Source of the DNA: an uncultured Candidatus Saccharibacteria bacterium
Lineage (GTDB): Bacteria; Patescibacteriota; Minisyncoccia; Spechtbacterales; HO2-43-30
DNA: 64,000 nucleotides
Direction: 5' to 3'
Assembly (NCBI GenBank): GCA_964504205.1
Contig: CAZDDE010000002.1
Span: 11,505 to 75,504, forward strand
Below the pieces are notes generated by a model. The model did not search any database, was not told the origin of the DNA, and was given only the letters and a program-made list of their open reading frames with translations. Position 1 is the stretch's first letter; each line of letters opens with the position of its first letter. A program made the translations under genes and the position numbers. Positions 54,343 to 63,142 of this stretch are shown here, one piece after another.

Positions 54343-55113
54343 TTGCAATTATTGCGTAAGCAAAATTCTATGCACAAGGCATTGCTATTATTAAAGAAAA
54401 TACCCTGCGGTAAAGTGACGACCTATAAAGAACTCGCGCGTGTATGCGGCACTTCGCCGCGGGCGATTGGGAGAATTTTGGCAAAAAATCCCGACCCGGT
54501 AAATTATCCATGCTATAAAATCGTCGCCTCCGACGGCCGCCTTTGCGGGTATAGCGGACGAGGCGGGCTGAAACGAAAAGCGGAATTACTGAAGCGCGAG
54601 GGAATAGATACTGTCGGTGATAGAGTAGCTAAGAGCTATTTTTATCAATTCAGGCAAGCTAAAAAAATTTTAACACTCTGCATCGTTCATCAGCATCCTC
54701 GGGTACTTCTTGGTATGAAAAAGCGGGGTTTTGGCGAAGGTAAATGGAACGGTTTTGGGGGGAAGGTTGAGCCGGGCGAGAGGATAATAGACGCGGCAAG
54801 GCGGGAACTGCGCGAAGAAGCGGGGATAGAAGTCGCGGATTTAACGAGGGCGGGAGTTGTTGAATTTGAATTCAAAGGTAATCCCGAGATTCTGCGGGTG
54901 CATATCTTCAAGACAAATGAATTTTACGGTACGCCGCAGGAGAGCGAGGAGATGAGACCACAGTGGTTTCATCTAGATAAAATCCCGTTTTCTAAAATGT
55001 GGCCCGACGACGCCCATTGGCTGCCATTAGTTTTAGCGGGTAAACAAATAAAGGCAAAGTTTTGGTTTGAAGGGTTTGATAAAATAATTGACAAGAGGAT
55101 AGAGTTCGTTTAA
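54343..55113 (+). CDS. Fusion: methylated-DNA-protein-cysteine methyltransferase DNA-binding domain (PCYKIV active-site region) plus MutT-like NUDIX hydrolase
   Basis: N-terminal HTH…PCYKIV (PCHRV-like), C-terminal GGKVEPGERIIDAARRELREEAGIEV NUDIX box. Confidence 0.7.
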   Translation: MQLLRKQNSMHKALLLLKKIPCGKVTTYKELARVCGTSPRAIGRILAKNPDPVNYPCYKIVASDGRLCGYSGRGGLKRKAELLKREGIDTVGDRVAKSYFYQFRQAKKILTLCIVHQHPRVLLGMKKRGFGEGKWNGFGGKVEPGERIIDAARRELREEAGIEVADLTRAGVVEFEFKGNPEILRVHIFKTNEFYGTPQESEEMRPQWFHLDKIPFSKMWPDDAHWLPLVLAGKQIKAKFWFEGFDKIIDKRIEFV

Positions 55114-57788: not shown

Positions 57789-57818
57789 AAGCCAGCAGAA
57801 ATGCTGGCTATTTATTTT
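57789..57818 (+). terminator. Rho-independent terminator
   Basis: agccagcagaaatgctggct hairpin followed by a T-rich run. Confidence 0.6.
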
Positions 57819-57905
57819 GCAAAAAATTTAGAAAGCTATATACTATTGATATGTTCTACTTAGTTTCTGATACTGAAACAATCGGCACAAATTAGGATTT
57901 GCGTT

Positions 57906-58475
57906 ATGGCGCATATTTTTTTAGAAAAATCATTCGCGTGGCTTGAGCATCCTTCCGGAGAAAACGTTTTGGCTAGTGATATATACTGCGCTACGCGCGA
58001 TGTTTTCCAGGGGCGATTGGATAATCTGCGTAGAATGCTTGAAGAAAAAATGCCGGATGATTCAGCATTGTTTATTGCCGTTTGCGGAGAGATAGGCAAT
58101 AATTCGTTTGACCATAATATTGGTAATTGGCGAGATATTCCCGGTGTTTATTTTGAATTTGATACAGAAAATTTCAGCGTGATTCTTGCGGATAGGGGGC
58201 GGGGGGTACGCGCGACTTTAGGCAGAGTTATGCCGGGACTTCAAAACGATCGCGAAGCGGTGGAGGCCGCCTTTACCCGACGGATTTCCGGACGCTTGCC
58301 CGAACAGCGCGGCAATGGCTTAAAATTTGTCCGTGATATTACTGAGGGAAAAAGATGGTCGCTGGAGTTTTTCTCCGGCTTGGGTGTGGCTAGCATTGTA
58401 AAAGGCGGGAAAATTGAATTTTTAATGGGGGATAATGATATAAAAGGTTGCGTTGCATTGGTTTCAATGAAATAA
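57906..58475 (+). CDS. GHKL/HATPase_c-domain protein (anti-sigma-factor-type serine kinase-like)
   Basis: N-box-like GEIGNNSFDHN, G1-like DRGRGV, G2-like GNGLKF. Confidence 0.5.
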   Translation: MAHIFLEKSFAWLEHPSGENVLASDIYCATRDVFQGRLDNLRRMLEEKMPDDSALFIAVCGEIGNNSFDHNIGNWRDIPGVYFEFDTENFSVILADRGRGVRATLGRVMPGLQNDREAVEAAFTRRISGRLPEQRGNGLKFVRDITEGKRWSLEFFSGLGVASIVKGGKIEFLMGDNDIKGCVALVSMK

Positions 58476-58491
58476 GCATACTAGCATTAGC

Positions 58492-58767
58492 ATGACGATT
58501 TATCTCAAAAAATTTGGTGAAATGCTTATATCCCGGCCAGCTGGCCGAGAAGCTTGGCTCGCGGCACTAGCTTATGTTCTGCCAAAGTCAACTGATGAAA
58601 AAGTAATCGTGGATTTTGAAGGCGTAGCTGTGCTTAGCCCCTCTTGGGCTGATGAATTTTTAACTAAACTGCTTGCAAGACAGGGGAAGAGGAATGTAGT
58701 TTTCCAAAATACTGATAATCCATCTGTTGGAGCGACATTACAAACGTTGGGGTTAGTGGAAGAATAA
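58492..58767 (+). CDS. Small STAS-like (DUF4325-like) protein, putative partner of the upstream GHKL ATPase
   Basis: ~90 aa; the EKVIVDFEGVAVLSPSWADEFLTKL pattern is typical of STAS-like antagonist folds. Confidence 0.4.
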   Translation: MTIYLKKFGEMLISRPAGREAWLAALAYVLPKSTDEKVIVDFEGVAVLSPSWADEFLTKLLARQGKRNVVFQNTDNPSVGATLQTLGLVEE

Positions 58768-58776
58768 TTTAAATTT

Positions 58777-59502
58777 ATGTCTTACCTGGTTTTTGATATT
58801 GAAACAATTGGCAAAAATTATGCGGATTTTGACTCGGCGGACAAGGCCTATTTTAAGCAATGGGCGGAAAGAGAGGCCGGAGACGAGGAGCAGATTGAAC
58901 GGGAATTGGAGAAGATAAAAAAGGGTCTGCCGTTCTCGCCGCTTTGGGGAGAAATTGTCGCTATCGCGATGCGCGATGATCATGAGATGGGAGCAGTGTA
59001 TTTCCGCGCGGATAAGGATAAAAAAGCAAAAGATTTTGAAGAAGACGGAATCCAATATCGCGTCGGTTCAGAAAAAGAAATCTTAGAGAAATTTTGGGAA
59101 GTAGCGCGCAATTATTATACTTTCGTTACTTTCAATGGCCGCGGATTTGACGCGCCGTTTTTAATGATTCGCTCCGCTGTGCATGGCCTGCGCCCCTCGC
59201 GCAATTTAATGCCGCCAAGGTATATGTCCCAGCAAAAGTATGGCCCCCAACACATTGATCTTGCCGACCAATTATCTTTCTACGGATCAATTAAAAGATC
59301 TAGTCTGCACTTTGCAACAAAGGCCTTTAACATGCAAAGTCCAAAAGAAGGCGGCATGAGCGGAGAAGAGGTGCCGCAAGCGTTCAAAGACGGCCGCTAT
59401 GAGGAGATTGCCCGCTACTGCATGGGCGATGTTTTCGCCACCAAAAAACTTTTTCAATACTGGGATCAGTTCCTTAATTTTGAAATAAACAGCCAAAGTT
59501 AA
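58777..59502 (+). CDS. DnaQ-fold 3'-5' exonuclease (PolB-exonuclease-domain-like, DEDDy)
   Basis: Exo I VFDIETIG, Exo II FNGRGFDAPFL, Exo III YCMGDVFAT. Confidence 0.6.
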   Translation: MSYLVFDIETIGKNYADFDSADKAYFKQWAEREAGDEEQIERELEKIKKGLPFSPLWGEIVAIAMRDDHEMGAVYFRADKDKKAKDFEEDGIQYRVGSEKEILEKFWEVARNYYTFVTFNGRGFDAPFLMIRSAVHGLRPSRNLMPPRYMSQQKYGPQHIDLADQLSFYGSIKRSSLHFATKAFNMQSPKEGGMSGEEVPQAFKDGRYEEIARYCMGDVFATKKLFQYWDQFLNFEINSQS

Positions 59503-59735
59503 CGAATCAGGAGGGTAAACTTGCTTATTGAAATTATTATTGTGGCTATTTTGATACTGCCGTTGCTCTTTTTGTTTTTTCTGCTTATACGTTTTTTACG
59601 TTCTTTGCGCTGTGCCCGCTGCCGCCGCTTTTTGCTTTTTGACGGCATTGATCAATCTCCCGTCACTCTTTCCGATATTTTTTTTCCGCGCGCAAGAATT
59701 TGTTTCACATGCCGTCATCTTGCGCGTTCCCCATA

Positions 59736-59800
59736 ATCGCCGTTTGAAAGCGGCGTTTTTTTTACTAAAAACGTCGCTTTCAAGATGAAGCGGCGGTTTT
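59736..59800 (+). terminator. Two tandem hairpin-plus-T-run terminator candidates
   Basis: cgccgtttgaaagcggcg followed by T8, and cgctttcaagatgaagcggcgg followed by T7. Confidence 0.5.
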
Positions 59801-59810
59801 TTTAATACAA

Positions 59811-60000
59811 AAGAAGGGAGTAGGGGGCGGCAATATAGAGACCTCCAGCCCATAGGGCCATAAATTAAACGTCCAGCCGCCCCCTTCTTTATTCAGCGAT
59901 TCACGCTGAACAAAGAAGGAGGCAGGGGCGGCCATAATCATATAATCCAGCCCAATAGGGCCATAAACTATGTGCTGCCCAGCCACCCCCGTATGGCTAT
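59811..60000 (+). repeat. Tandemly duplicated ~85 bp structured unit with long inverted repeats (aagaaggg…gggggcggc / gccgccccc…cttcttt) and an embedded ccagccca(a)tagggccataaa motif
   Basis: Unit 1 is ~59811-59893 and unit 2 ~59911-60000, separated by the palindrome ttcagcgattcacgctgaa. Confidence 0.55.
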
Positions 60001-60073
60001 TTTATCATATATGGTTAGACTTGTCAATATGGATGAAGGTAACTCAAATGTTAAAATAATAATAAATGTCATA

Positions 60074-63000
60074 ATGAACGAAATGTTTGCTAGATTGTAT
60101 AACCAGCTAAACCCGCAACAGAAAGAAGCGGTTGATACCCTGGAGGGGCCCCTAATGGTCGTGGCAGGACCGGGGACGGGCAAGACGCAGGTTTTGACTT
60201 TGCGGATCGCCAATGTAATCCTGCAAGGCAAGGCCAAGCCGGAAGAAGTTTTAGCACTCACTTTCACCGAGAATGCCGCGGCAAACATGCGCCGGCGGCT
60301 TTTTGAAATTCTGGGCAGTCGGGCGTACTTTGTGAATATCGCGACCTTTCATGGATTTTGCAACGAAGTCATTCAGCAAAACCCGGAAGATTTTGCGTTT
60401 GTTCAAGCGCAGGATATTTATCGCGCGGGCACGAACGTCAGCGAAGTGGAGCAGACGCAACTATTAGAAAATATAATCAGAAAAGGCCAATTTGAACGTT
60501 TCAATCTTTACAATCCTTATATCAATTATATTGCCCTGATCAATAAAGCCATTGGCGACCTCAAGCGCGAGGGCGTCGGTCCGAATGAATACAATCTGCT
60601 TATTCAAAAGGCCGAAGACGAGCTTGCCGCTCGCGATGATCTCTACCATGCGAAGGGCCGCTATAAAGGGCAAATAAAATCCGTCTACAAAAAGGCGCAG
60701 GAGCGCATTGAAAAAAACAAAGAGTTTTGTGAGGTTTACCGGCACTATCAGGAAGAACTGACAAGTTTGGGAGATTATGATTACAACGATATGATTATGT
60801 ACACGCTCAGAGCATTGCGCGAAAATAAGATTTTACGCGAGCGCTTGCGCGGCGCGTACAAATATATTCTTATTGACGAACACCAGGATGCCAATAGCGC
60901 GCAGAACAAGGTTGTTGAGCTCATCGGCGGCGAAGATCCTGCGCCAAACATTTTTGTGGTGGGAGATGAGAAACAGGCCATTTTTAGATTTCAGGGCGCA
61001 TCGCTTGCCAACATTATGTATTTCAAAAACAAGTTTCCTTCGTGCAAGGTAGTAACTTTGCAAAAAAATTATAGATCTCATCAAAAGATAATAGACGCCG
61101 CGCAGAGCGTGATTTCAAACAATGAGGGAAGAATTGCCAATTACATCGTAGGGATTGACGATTCTCTGACTGCGGCGCATGGGAGCGCGGGAAGAAAAAT
61201 TGAGCTGTATGAGCCAGAAACTCCGGAACTGGAGCTTTACATGATCAAAGAAAAAATAAAAGAACTTGAAGCGGAGGGCGTTGCGCGAAGCGAGATAGCG
61301 GTGCTCTACCGTGAAAATCGTGAAGGCGATGCTATATCCGACGTCCTTTCTAAAGAGGGGATTCTGCATGTTGTAGAATCAAGCCGGAACATTTTTGACG
61401 ATGCGGCAATAAAAAATTTTATCGCCCTTGTAATCTTTGCCGCAAGGCGCGATCTTACATCAGGGGCTCTGCGCCGTCAAGAGTGCGATGCTGAACTAAT
61501 CAATCTTTTACTTATCGATTTTTTGGAGATTCCAGCATCTGATGTATATAAACTTGCAAGTCTGCGCGCCGAACGCCGCAAGCCCAAAAATATATTTTGG
61601 GTAATGAGTGATGTTAAGTTGATGCAGGAAAATAACATTGAGTCTTGCGATAAGATTTTTGAATTTTCTCAAAACATTTCAAAATGGATATCGGCGGCAC
61701 AGAGTAAGAATGCCGCCCAGGCATTTGAGCAAATAGCTCGCGAATCCGGATTTTTGGAATATATCGCGTCAAAAAATTCTTTTGATTATATTGCAAAGTT
61801 CAACACTATTTTTTCGGAGCTTAAAAACCTTACGCAAAGCAAAAAAAATTTTACTCTCGCTGATTTTACGCAACATGTTGCTTTGCTTGGAAGATTCGGC
61901 ATAGCGCTCAAGCAGAAATCTTTGCGCCTGCCGGCGGACGCAGTGCGGCTGATGACCGTGCACAAAGCCAAGGGTCTGGAGTTTGATTATGTCATTTTGT
62001 GCGGATGCCTTGATGCAAGGTGGGGCGGAAGAAAAAAGCCGGACGTTCTGGGTTTGCTTGATATTTACGGTGAAGGCGGAGGAACCGATGCCTCCGCAAT
62101 AGAAGATAATCGGCGGCTTTTCTATGTCGCTTTGACTAGAGCGCGAAAAGGCGTATTTATCTCCGCGCCGCTTTATGCCGGAGATGGCCGCGAACAAATA
62201 AGAAGCCGCTTTATTGGCGAGATAAAGCCGGAGCTTGTGGAGCGGGGCGATGTGAGCCGATACGACAAAGGAATCGCTGCGACCGCACATTTCTTCATCA
62301 GTGAGGCAAGGCCAAGCGAGCCGGGCGTTTCTGACAAAAAGTTTTTGCAGGCCCTTTTTTTGAAAAGGGGCCTTTCGGCGACCGCGCTAAACAATTATCT
62401 GGTCTGCCCATGGAGATATTTTTATCGCAATCTCGTGCGCCTGCCCGAAGCCCAGCAATCCTATCTTATGTATGGCAACGCCGTGCACGCGGCGCTGAAA
62501 GAATTTTTTGATTGGCCAGATCGGAGCAAGGAACATCTTTTTCTAAAATTTACCCGCGCCCTCAATGCGCAGCCCTTTTTGGAGCACGAAGCCTTAAGGT
62601 ATAAAGGGCGTGGTGAAAAAGCGCTTAGCGCGTATTTTGATAATTATGATTTAGGTTCTTCAATGGCAGGAATAAAAACGATCAACGAGTTTACCGTCGG
62701 CAATATTATGCTCGATCGCAATATCCGTCTGACCGGGAAGATTGATAAGATAGAGTTGGATTTTGGAGGCGGCGTCAACGTCGTTGATTACAAAACCGGT
62801 CGGGCAAAAAGCCGCAATGCGCTTGCCGGTATCGGCAAGAATGCTGCGGGTAACGAGAGGCGACAGCTCGTGTTTTACAAGTTATTGCTGGATAGACTGC
62901 CGGATTCAAAATATCGCATGACTTCCGGCGAGATAGATTTTGTGGAGCCCGACAAAAAATCTGGTAAGTTTCGCAAAGAGAAATTCGTCATCAGTAGCGA

Positions 63001-63142
63001 AGATACCTCTGCCCTGGAGTCTCAAATCCGCCAATCCGCGGATGAAATATTAAGTTTATCCTTTTGGAACAAACGATGCGATGACGCCAGATGTTATTAC
63101 TGTTCGTTGCGCGAGATGACGCAAAAAAGAACTCCCCGCTAG
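60074..63142 (+). CDS. UvrD/PcrA-family SF1 helicase with C-terminal PD-(D/E)xK (RecB/Cas4-like, Cys-cluster) nuclease domain (AddA-like)
   Basis: Walker A AGPGTGKTQVL; helicase motifs through VHKAKGLEFDYVIL; C-terminal CPWRYF…DYKTG…CDDARCYYCS cysteine cluster. The track ORF starts at 59972 inside the repeat; ATG at 60074 is preferred. Confidence 0.8.
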   Translation: MNEMFARLYNQLNPQQKEAVDTLEGPLMVVAGPGTGKTQVLTLRIANVILQGKAKPEEVLALTFTENAAANMRRRLFEILGSRAYFVNIATFHGFCNEVIQQNPEDFAFVQAQDIYRAGTNVSEVEQTQLLENIIRKGQFERFNLYNPYINYIALINKAIGDLKREGVGPNEYNLLIQKAEDELAARDDLYHAKGRYKGQIKSVYKKAQERIEKNKEFCEVYRHYQEELTSLGDYDYNDMIMYTLRALRENKILRERLRGAYKYILIDEHQDANSAQNKVVELIGGEDPAPNIFVVGDEKQAIFRFQGASLANIMYFKNKFPSCKVVTLQKNYRSHQKIIDAAQSVISNNEGRIANYIVGIDDSLTAAHGSAGRKIELYEPETPELELYMIKEKIKELEAEGVARSEIAVLYRENREGDAISDVLSKEGILHVVESSRNIFDDAAIKNFIALVIFAARRDLTSGALRRQECDAELINLLLIDFLEIPASDVYKLASLRAERRKPKNIFWVMSDVKLMQENNIESCDKIFEFSQNISKWISAAQSKNAAQAFEQIARESGFLEYIASKNSFDYIAKFNTIFSELKNLTQSKKNFTLADFTQHVALLGRFGIALKQKSLRLPADAVRLMTVHKAKGLEFDYVILCGCLDARWGGRKKPDVLGLLDIYGEGGGTDASAIEDNRRLFYVALTRARKGVFISAPLYAGDGREQIRSRFIGEIKPELVERGDVSRYDKGIAATAHFFISEARPSEPGVSDKKFLQALFLKRGLSATALNNYLVCPWRYFYRNLVRLPEAQQSYLMYGNAVHAALKEFFDWPDRSKEHLFLKFTRALNAQPFLEHEALRYKGRGEKALSAYFDNYDLGSSMAGIKTINEFTVGNIMLDRNIRLTGKIDKIELDFGGGVNVVDYKTGRAKSRNALAGIGKNAAGNERRQLVFYKLLLDRLPDSKYRMTSGEIDFVEPDKKSGKFRKEKFVISSEDTSALESQIRQSADEILSLSFWNKRCDDARCYYCSLREMTQKRTPR

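Follow-up and report, generated by a model that had tools for sequence, protein, structure and literature searches.

The Cap and Vap systems are DNA-damage-activated modules, mostly of Proteobacteria, which have immune operons or a toxin under their control (Chambers et al., EMBO J 2026, PMC13373217). CapK is a serine kinase of 368 amino acids (aa) with the domain order helix-turn-helix (HTH)–STAS–GHKL and has single-stranded DNA (ssDNA) as its activator. It phosphorylates the repressor CapS, composed of a STAS domain and a winged HTH (wHTH), at Ser54, which leads to the de-repression of the downstream immune operon. VapK (STAS–GHKL) is proposed to phosphorylate VapS at Ser48 and so to release the PIN toxin VapC; VapS consists of a STAS domain and a toxin-inhibiting C-terminal helix (residues 94–116). 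According to the same study, 348 of 443 capKS loci lie upstream of immune operons, 36% of the vapKSC loci are near a defence gene, and CapK–CapS is a 'controller of adjacent pathways', the variable downstream operons being regulated in response to ssDNA (PMC13373217). The capKS and vapKSC datasets of that study contain no entries from Patescibacteria. Here we describe a pair of genes, designated K and S, in a 64,000-nucleotide stretch of contig CAZDDE010000002.1 from an uncultured Candidatus Saccharibacteria bacterium (the window). K encodes a protein with a predicted GHKL/Bergerat fold and S a STAS-like protein, and the pair is followed by genes of DNA metabolism.

We consider it probable that this region is made up of two unrelated things, an autonomous K–S operon and a housekeeping DNA-repair neighbourhood, which adjoin by chance. 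Judged by sequence comparison, K–S is most likely a minimal, distant and previously undescribed branch of the CapK/CapS–VapK/VapS family that occurs throughout Patescibacteria. The repair neighbourhood comprises a DEDDy exonuclease, a small protein predicted to be a membrane-anchored zinc ribbon, a UvrD–PD-(D/E)xK helicase-nuclease and nth. The gene content, the folds and motifs, the strict coupling of K to S, the lack of a conserved third gene and the ranking of the homologies are direct observations. A preliminary description of the window had given the open reading frames (ORFs), their coordinates and the 16-bp gap between K and S, all of which were confirmed by the ORF listing.

The K and S proteins and their closest characterised relatives

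The K protein has no match in Pfam, NCBIfam or the PDB sequences, either in single-sequence or in profile searches. Its designation as a HATPase_c-type protein in the preliminary description stands at the fold level, where motifs and Foldseek agree, and is confirmed by no library of hidden Markov models (HMMs). Sub-threshold matches to HATPase_c or HATPase_c_2 are found in a minority of the K family (weak HATPase_c_2 in 7 of 27 members); CapK and VapK, like K, fall below the HATPase_c threshold of Pfam. The N-box (GEIGNNSFDHN, aa 61–71), the G1 box (DRGxG, aa 95–100) and the G2 box (RGNGLKF, aa 135–141) are invariant in the family alignment, with E62-x3-N66, D96-R-G-x-G100 and G136-N-G-L present in 27 of 27 sequences. 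The AlphaFold model of K (predicted local distance difference test, pLDDT, 90) matches the ATPase domains of GyrB, ParE, MutL and Hsp90 with a Foldseek probability of 1.0 and a template modelling (TM) score of only ~0.4. By its motifs and its modelled fold, K is a member of the GHKL/Bergerat-fold ATP-binding superfamily. Residues 1–55 are modelled as two helices and form neither a STAS domain nor any other separate domain. A marginal match of K to the PADLOC model of DrmA (E=0.0027) was disregarded.

At 90% identity the K family falls into more than 4,500 clusters, and a scan with one genome per species found relatives in at least 568 genomes. Only 720 proteins at E≤1e-3 were returned by an exhaustive profile search of 1.84 billion representatives; the family is therefore regarded as compact and isolated in sequence. 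It is strongly conserved (41–55% mean column identity) and is currently covered by no Pfam or NCBIfam model. Approximately two-thirds of its members are long forms of 240–280 aa with an N-terminal HTH, and the fused HTH domains belong to at least three unrelated types (MarR/HTH_24, ArsR-like and MerR). The K protein of the window is a short form without HTH. Among the top matches the long forms are HTH fusions, and no fusion of K to S was found. The phage and plasmid collections contain no match to K, and IMG/VR contains a single contig with one, L099, on which the pair is located next to an integrase. The segment 3425–8182 of this contig shows a prophage fragment in which both terminase subunits (small and large), a replication initiator and a serine integrase of 556 aa are encoded; a long-form K and the start of S follow directly after the integrase at the contig end. 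This pair either is cargo of the prophage or belongs to the host flank of the attachment site.

The assignment of the S protein as STAS/DUF4325-like was upheld by a match to PF14213 above the cut-off (E=1.7e-8, 34.5 bits, cut-off 23), and nothing was obtained for it from the PDB profile search. The top fold matches of its model (pLDDT 96) are STAS domains with TM scores of 0.55–0.65, and the PDB entries matched are RsbS (probability 0.89, TM 0.58), stressosome proteins, TM1442 and SLC26 STAS domains. S is a STAS domain alone, and its homologues have lengths of 78–104 aa. The predicted phospho-loop at aa 41–56 reads DFEGVAVLSPSWADEF, and the most conserved stretch of the protein is D41-F-x-G-V-x-V-L-(T/S)-P50-S51-W-A-D-E. 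Ser51, encoded at nt 58642–58644, is placed by the model at the N-terminus of helix 50–64, the second long helix of S. Both Ser51 and Pro50 are kept in 79 of 80 S sequences. Position 49 is occupied by Thr or Ser in 67 of the 80 sequences and is a less likely acceptor than Ser51, because it is Ala in 12.

For the comparison with characterised proteins, the CapK, CapS, VapK and VapS sequences were taken from the source data of PMC13373217; for SpoIIAB, MutL, RsbS and SpoIIAA provisional sequences were used, so that these comparisons are leads only. The hhalign comparison aligned the K profile with the whole kinase domain of VapK at E=1.7e-3 and with CapK at E=4.8e-3, and the catalytic N218 in the N-box of CapK was aligned with the N66 motif of K. 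The S profile aligned with VapS at E=1.6e-4, from residue 1 and over residues 1–62 only, and with CapS at E=2.1e-3, where the phosphorylated Ser54 of CapS fell on Ser51. Against the provisional sequences, the K profile reached E=0.041 with MutL and E=0.32 with SpoIIAB; the motifs of SpoIIAB, MutL, RsbS and SpoIIAA were in register and the scores were insignificant, with E=0.3–0.6 for the partner-switch proteins. HMMs built from 80 loci of the family gave a score in hmmsearch only to VapK, CapK and VapS among eight reference proteins, and none to SpoIIAB, SpoIIAA or RsbS. Among all references tested, the Vap system ranked first in both hhalign and hmmsearch. The preliminary description had compared K–S with partner-switching kinase and antagonist modules. 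This proved apt, the nearest characterised relatives being CapK–CapS and VapK–VapS (PMC13373217), of which VapS is a DUF4325 protein as well.

With VapK–VapS–VapC the pair shares the order of kinase gene and STAS gene and the DUF4325 domain of the STAS protein, which VapS matches in Pfam at E=2.7e-17 and CapS does not match. An older note on a PIN subfamily 'transcriptionally coupled to DUF4325 genes' is explained by the membership of VapS in this family. The phospho-loop of VapS, VILDFSNVKMFASPFF, resembles VIVDFEGVAVLSPSWA of the window S. The N-box reads WEIYANSFEHS in VapK, SELIGNVRDHS in CapK and GEIGNNSFDHN in the window K. The differences are the following: K–S lacks VapC, a PIN protein or any other conserved third gene, K is devoid of the N-terminal STAS domain in which VapK has a predicted ssDNA groove, and S ends at residue 91 and is missing the inhibitory helix of VapS (94–116). 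In contrast to the vapKSC loci near defence genes, K–S shows no association with defence genes.

CapK–CapS likewise has the gene of a GHKL serine kinase followed by the gene of its STAS substrate. The G1 box of CapK, SDSGLGIATTLKRN, corresponds to ADRGRGVRATLGRV in the window K, and its G2 box, RGLGLK, to RGNGLK. The N-terminal HTH of CapK is shared with the long forms of K and is absent from the short form in the window, and the K family shows the architectures HTH–GHKL or GHKL alone where CapK has HTH–STAS–GHKL. CapS acts as a repressor through a C-terminal wHTH, whereas S is a bare STAS domain. Furthermore, the capKS genes are mostly located before immune operons, while the genes downstream of K–S are housekeeping genes. 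K–S has in common with the broader Cap/Vap clade that a GHKL gene directly precedes a STAS gene whose helix 2 bears an absolutely conserved Ser/Thr, which in S is Ser51 (79 of 80 sequences). The SpoIIAB–SpoIIAA, RsbW–RsbV and RsbT–RsbS modules are also composed of a small GHKL protein and a single-domain STAS protein whose helix 2 has a conserved Ser at its start. The SpoIIAB/RsbW modules differ from K–S of the window, which has neither a neighbouring sigma factor nor a PP2C phosphatase, and the anti-sigma kinases have no HTH of their own, unlike most K family members.

From these comparisons we infer a kinase activity of K, an acceptor residue in S, and a switch with its signal. K would bind ATP through its Bergerat fold (E62/N66 of the N-box, DRGxG and RGNGLKF) and would phosphorylate S at Ser51, which is invariant and lies where the second STAS helix begins. 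Phosphorylation would then alter the binding partner of S or K, as in a partner switch. This model is proposed because K and S are strictly coupled in an operon and often overlap, the acceptor loop is conserved, and both proteins show homology to two studied kinase/STAS pairs. The output is probably transcriptional in about two-thirds of the family, through the wHTH or the MerR-type HTH on K, since most of the kinases carry an HTH. For the short form in the window, a DNA-binding domain is predicted on neither K nor S.

Conservation of the pair and of its neighbourhood

The surroundings of K were analysed in the best 80 loci of at least 568 genomes, all 80 from different assemblies. Seventy-nine of these loci are informative, the exception being L036, which ends ~100 bp after K. 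In all 79, S is located directly 3′ of K on the same strand; the median gap is ~5 bp and the two genes frequently overlap. The same order was found in 3 of 3 metagenome contexts examined. No further neighbour family occurs in more than 9 of the 80 loci, as shown by assumption-free clustering of the ORFs within ±6 kb.

The preliminary description had grouped K, S, the exonuclease and the helicase as a possible conflict or defence unit. The census does not bear this out. The exonuclease is found near K–S in 1 of the 80 loci, nth in none, and an orthologue of the UvrD–PD-(D/E)xK helicase-nuclease in one (L018, where it is adjacent); a distant UvrD is present in one more. In L018 (571–4288) a full-length orthologue with 39% identity lies directly after K–S, with neither the exonuclease nor the small ORF, and this single case in 80 is compatible with chance. 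The gene combination in the window is an ordinary juxtaposition.

The few recurrent neighbours of K–S are HTH-Fic proteins, TrmB-type regulators, a small GIY-YIG protein, holA and dnaG–rpoD; their positions vary and the loci are unrelated. The most frequent is a 350-aa protein with a wHTH (Penicillinase_R-like) and a Fic/DOC domain, found in 9 of the 80 loci in variable position and strand (L010, L020, L026, L029, L044, L047, L066, L079 and L080, within ±6 kb). It probably represents a multi-copy family of the host genomes and not a partner of K–S. An enrichment of holA, dnaG, rpoD and RmuC near K–S was also considered and rejected, as 5–6 occurrences in 80 are about the chance level for single-copy genes across ~900 tested families.

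The first gene downstream of K–S was identified in 75 loci. It is convergent in 28 of them, and the co-directional gaps have a median of ~90 bp. These genes are diverse, including TrmD, RmuC, HrcA, Cys-tRNA synthetase, LigA, RF-1 and DnaG, and their functions belong mostly to translation and general housekeeping without an enriched theme. No PADLOC enrichment was detected among the downstream genes of these 75 loci, and no PIN domain is among the families listed downstream of K–S. The conserved neighbours within ±6 kb in the 80 loci do not include a PP2C phosphatase, and no sigma-factor gene is present in the 52–64 kb segment of the window.

Organisation of the locus and the repair genes

The window is a compact bacterial chromosome segment, and the homologues of every gene in it come overwhelmingly from metagenome-assembled genomes of Patescibacteria, the candidate phyla radiation (CPR). 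The features around K–S are collected in Table 1.

Table 1. Predicted genes and signals around the K–S pair, in window coordinates.
Feature	Position	Strand	Evidence
Bidirectional terminator-like hairpin after the TPM gene	57790..57809	.	consensus scan
Promoter-like sigma-70 hexamer pairs 5′ of K	57816..57874	+	consensus scan, 9/12 matches
K, predicted GHKL/Bergerat-fold protein, 189 aa, short form	57906..58475	+	motifs, AlphaFold/Foldseek, hhalign, hmmsearch
S, DUF4325 STAS-like protein, 91 aa	58492..58767	+	Pfam PF14213, model, synteny
Stand-alone DEDDy 3′-5′ exonuclease, PolB-exonuclease type, 241 aa	58777..59502	+	PF10108, motifs
Small ORF, 71 aa, transmembrane helix and CxxC…CxxC	59521..59736	+	ORF listing, homologue in L091
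Two tandem intrinsic terminators	59738-59763 and 59772-59805	+	terminator scan, inverted repeat I2
Two imperfect hairpin copies, ~75 nt each	59817-59890 and 59918-59990	.	repeat families D2, D5, D6; inverted repeat I8
UvrD/PcrA-type superfamily 1 (SF1) helicase with C-terminal PD-(D/E)xK nuclease, 1022 aa	60074..63142	+	Pfam, NCBIfam, motifs
Endonuclease III (nth), 236 aa	63159..63869	+	TIGR01083 above cut-off, HhH-GPD domain (Pfam)

K is preceded by the genes of SecA, Ham1, an MGMT-domain/NUDIX fusion, LemA, a solute-binding protein and a TPM protein, and is separated from the last of these by 129 bp. The hairpin in this gap would mark where a new transcription unit begins. S and the exonuclease are 9 bp apart, and the helicase and nth 16 bp. 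The tandem terminators are predicted to end a unit of K, S, the exonuclease and the small ORF, so that helicase and nth would belong to another one. The MGMT/NUDIX fusion itself (54343–55113, + strand; 256 aa) joins an MGMT-type DNA-binding domain to a NUDIX hydrolase domain and keeps a P-C-Y-K motif where the active-site cysteine would stand; the match to its homologue in L092 is confined to the NUDIX half.

The identification of a stand-alone DEDDy exonuclease of the PolB type was borne out by PF10108 (DNA_pol_B_exo2, E=7.9e-24, 85 bits, cut-off 24) and by the motifs FDIET (ExoI, DxE), NGRGFD (ExoII, Nx3FD) and YCMGD (ExoIII, Yx3D). The protein also matches a DNA polymerase exonuclease subunit in PHROG. 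The exonuclease is predicted to be co-transcribed with K–S in the window, yet it is not a conserved partner of the pair.

The 571 bp between the exonuclease and the helicase, described earlier as a structured tandem repeat, also contain the small ORF and the two terminators, which had been overlooked. The ORF starts with TTG behind a GGAGG Shine-Dalgarno sequence, and its product has an N-terminal transmembrane helix followed by CxxC…CxxC and is predicted to be a membrane-anchored zinc ribbon. It has no Pfam or PHROG match. A 71-aa homologue with 48% identity likewise stands between exonuclease and helicase in L091 (2286–2501); an unrelated 167-aa ORF is at this place in L092. As to the repeat, two imperfect hairpin copies are present, of the form GGGGGCGGC…CCCATAGGGCCATAAA…GCCGCCCCC, which share sub-blocks of 79–89% identity ~101–103 nt apart; Tandem Repeats Finder (TRF) does not report these copies. 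The fold z-scores of the hairpins range from -3.3 to -1.2, with z=-5.8 for the whole 190 nt. Rfam gave no match above the gathering score and only miRNA-like hairpins at chance level under relaxed thresholds. The loop motif occurs elsewhere in the window not beyond chance and in 0 of 89 fetched loci. On the minus strand, a promoter-like site at 60027–59999 (TTGACA-17-TAAAAT with an upstream TG, 11/12 matches) points into the hairpins, and the terminator hairpins lie beyond them as seen from this site. The hairpin pair might represent a decayed element, or else a small RNA from either strand. The segment 59760–59805, which covers the second terminator, resembles the coding sequence of helicase motif Ia (FTKNVAFKMKRRFF against FTENAAANMRRRLF in the helicase). 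It is 83–87% identical at the DNA level to the helicase genes of L089 and L091 (E=4e-10 and 2e-7) and may have remained from a helicase 5′ end that was duplicated or replaced.

The helicase-nuclease shows the domains expected from the preliminary description, namely UvrD-helicase (E=2.7e-63), UvrD_C (E=9.4e-47), PDDEXK_1 (E=4e-27) and a weak Cas4 match in Pfam, with four cysteines in CPWRYF and CDDARCYYC and the DYKTG motif. Its best NCBIfam match is PcrA (E=1e-101, 341 bits against a cut-off of 911), and it is below every equivalog cut-off (PcrA, UvrD, Rep, RecB and AddA). The SF1 UvrD N- and C-terminal domains are shared with PcrA/UvrD and the nuclease with four cysteines with the iron-sulphur nucleases AddB and Cas4; as a single-chain helicase-nuclease of ~1,000 aa it differs from these enzymes, and the genes examined beside it did not include an AddB- or RecC-like partner. 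Homologues of ~1,000 aa with the same architecture form more than 7,000 full-length clusters, to which the sources give the names PcrA or ATP-dependent helicase. In three contexts, including that of the closest homologue (56% identity), the gene is located among genes of Obg, EF-P, ribosomal proteins and tRNA synthetases, and K–S, the exonuclease and nth are absent from all three. The helicase-nuclease is a Patescibacteria-wide housekeeping family. The public record lists a helicase of 1056 aa starting from GTG 59972 (protein P0121), which overlaps the second hairpin. This call is probably an over-extension, because the homologues align from residues 2–5 of the 1022-aa form (ATG 60074). The helicase also matches the GajB models of PADLOC (E=1e-83). 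Assignment to Gabija was rejected, as the match reflects generic UvrD similarity and no GajA is present among the neighbours (nth, the exonuclease, K–S and TPM). The product of nth scores 231.3 bits against TIGR01083 (cut-off 211.7). The preliminary description had offered a DNA-repair neighbourhood as its alternative, and for the exonuclease, the helicase-nuclease and nth this was correct.

The repair genes can also be followed in close relatives of the window. The exonuclease gene is followed by the helicase gene in L091, L092 and L093, whose exonucleases are 78–88% identical to that of the window. L092 has the order SecA–NUDIX–exonuclease–167-aa ORF–helicase, with SecA 75% and the exonuclease 78% identical, and contains no K–S. 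The preliminary description had itself stated that such an arrangement, with the helicase among repair genes in relatives and no GHKL/STAS pair, would refute its defence reading. L091 has kept S, the exonuclease, the small ORF and the helicase, and its K is a truncated, frameshifted remnant. A toxin–antitoxin pair of MNT (NTP_transf_2/Polbeta) and HepT/HEPN-like genes (L091, 102–1229) replaces the 5′ half of K, and the ORF of the K fragment starts with MSYLVFD, the N-terminus of the exonuclease, which suggests a recombination scar. Homologues of the exonuclease at ~50% identity have no helicase nearby. The adjacency of exonuclease and helicase is conserved only in the close lineage of the window and is independent of K–S.

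Weighing of the alternatives and significance

Several points weigh against the reading of K–S as an autonomous kinase/STAS operon of the Cap/Vap family. The similarity to VapK, CapK and VapS is weak (~15 bits and hhalign probabilities of 7–50% against single reference sequences); the placement is therefore a ranking and not a significant hit, and with scores of ~15 bits K–S is taken as a distant branch that is a member of neither named system. The alignments leave the acceptor residue uncertain by one or two positions, since Ser48 of VapS aligns with Pro50, between position 49 and Ser51. K could be an ATPase or a clamp and not a protein kinase, because its best PDB folds are GyrB, ParE, MutL and Hsp90 instead of anti-sigma kinases and its N-box has the GHL-style N-x-x-D; the same box also carries the kinase-style N-x3-H. 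The STAS domain that provides the ssDNA groove of CapK and VapK is lacking in K, and the ssDNA signal is thus not transferable to it. No phosphatase or output partner was found for K–S. The promoter and terminator calls are consensus predictions only. Finally, the exonuclease starts within ~4–13 bp of S in the window and in its closest relatives, L090 and L091, and may therefore be locally co-regulated.

In another reading, K–S is a DNA-damage or ssDNA sensor that regulates whatever operon follows it, here the exonuclease, the small protein and perhaps the repair genes. CapK/CapS also regulate variable downstream operons in response to ssDNA, so the variable neighbours do not exclude it by themselves. 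An HTH is present on most kinases of the family, a single promoter-like region precedes the closely spaced genes of K, S and the exonuclease, and genes of DNA metabolism occur among the first downstream genes (RmuC three times, LigA, DnaG and UvrD). Nevertheless, we regard this reading as unlikely. Of the first downstream genes, 28 of 75 are convergent, and the co-directional ones follow at a median gap of ~90 bp; the downstream functions are mostly translation and housekeeping, with DNA-related neighbours at about the chance level after multiple testing. Moreover, K and S of the window have no DNA-binding domain, and the STAS domain to which ssDNA sensing is ascribed is missing from K.

A more far-reaching proposal, which we hold to be improbable, sees in K–S a stand-alone, Patescibacteria-specific phospho-switch for stress or DNA damage. 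The pair would be an ancestral or stripped-down CapK/VapK, would regulate transcription in general by way of the HTH on its kinase in organisms poor in regulators, and would control the co-transcribed exonuclease in the lineage of the window. If this were true, the kinase/STAS module of the immune operons in Proteobacteria would have a housekeeping counterpart in the CPR, the order K–S–nuclease of the window would parallel vapK–vapS–vapC in function, and the switch would be tied to adjacent repair genes.

Distinctly unlikely is a toxin–antitoxin-like or abortive-infection pair, in which K or another partner is toxic and is neutralised by S until S is phosphorylated, as a derivative of VapKSC without VapC. 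Such an origin would fit with VapS being a DUF4325 antitoxin and with the coupling of DUF4325 genes to a PIN/VapC subfamily. The distribution of the pair is also patchy, as it is absent in L092 and decayed in L091 beside the inserted MNT/HepT pair, one pair is located at a prophage integrase, and HTH-Fic genes are nearby in 9 of 80 loci. Against this, no third gene or PIN domain is conserved and S has no inhibitory C-terminal helix of the VapS type. The best 80 loci are in 80 different genomes, and the compactness of the family, with its 41–55% mean column identity, is more typical of a regulator than of a toxin–antitoxin pair, which would diversify rapidly. The family is also absent from the phage and plasmid collections.

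A four-gene defence or conflict system, in which the kinase/STAS pair senses infection and controls the exonuclease and the helicase-nuclease as effectors, is very improbable and has largely been refuted by the synteny census. The order K–S–nuclease does mirror vapK–vapS–vapC and capK–capS–immune operon, the exonuclease follows S after 9 bp and the adjacency of a DUF4325 gene and the exonuclease recurs in L090 and L091, the helicase matches the GajB models, and one K–S pair adjoins a prophage integrase. Against this, exonuclease (1/80), helicase orthologue (1/80) and nth (0/80) do not accompany K–S in the census, and L092 has the exonuclease and the helicase in order without the pair. The helicase belongs to a family of housekeeping genes that has more than 7,000 clusters; its GajB similarity is generic, no GajA is present, and two terminators separate it from the pair. 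S does not have the C-terminal helix that VapS needs for nuclease inhibition. The four window proteins have no PADLOC match beyond GajB and the marginal DrmA, the downstream genes show no enrichment, and the K family is missing from the phage and plasmid collections.

Highly unlikely, too, is a classical anti-sigma/anti-anti-sigma switch of the RsbW–RsbV or SpoIIAB–SpoIIAA type, with a short K sequestering a sigma factor that S releases: the bare GHKL protein of ~190 aa and the bare STAS protein of ~90 aa equal the SpoIIAB/SpoIIAA architecture, S is closest in fold to the STAS domains of RsbS and the stressosome, HATPase_c_2 is weakly matched in 7 of 27 members and 5 of 80 loci have rpoD at a distance of up to 6 kb, but there is no adjacent sigma-factor gene (the preliminary description had considered a standard RsbW next to one), no PP2C phosphatase is among the conserved neighbours, SpoIIAB, SpoIIAA and RsbS are not scored by the family HMMs that score VapK and VapS, the proximity of rpoD is about the chance level after multiple testing, and most members carry their own HTH.

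We therefore return to the autonomous K–S operon as the probable reading, with the repair genes as its chance neighbours. For annotation, the locus teaches that a kinase/STAS pair beside nucleases and a helicase is here not a defence island. K–S would be a minimal relative of the Cap/Vap modules described in 2026 that is common across Patescibacteria: a strict two-gene operon with a kinase without sensor STAS domain, a substrate without output domain, no effector and no link to defence. As such it would offer a tractable minimal system for the core kinase–STAS switch, and it is a candidate regulator for a phylum from which very few are known.

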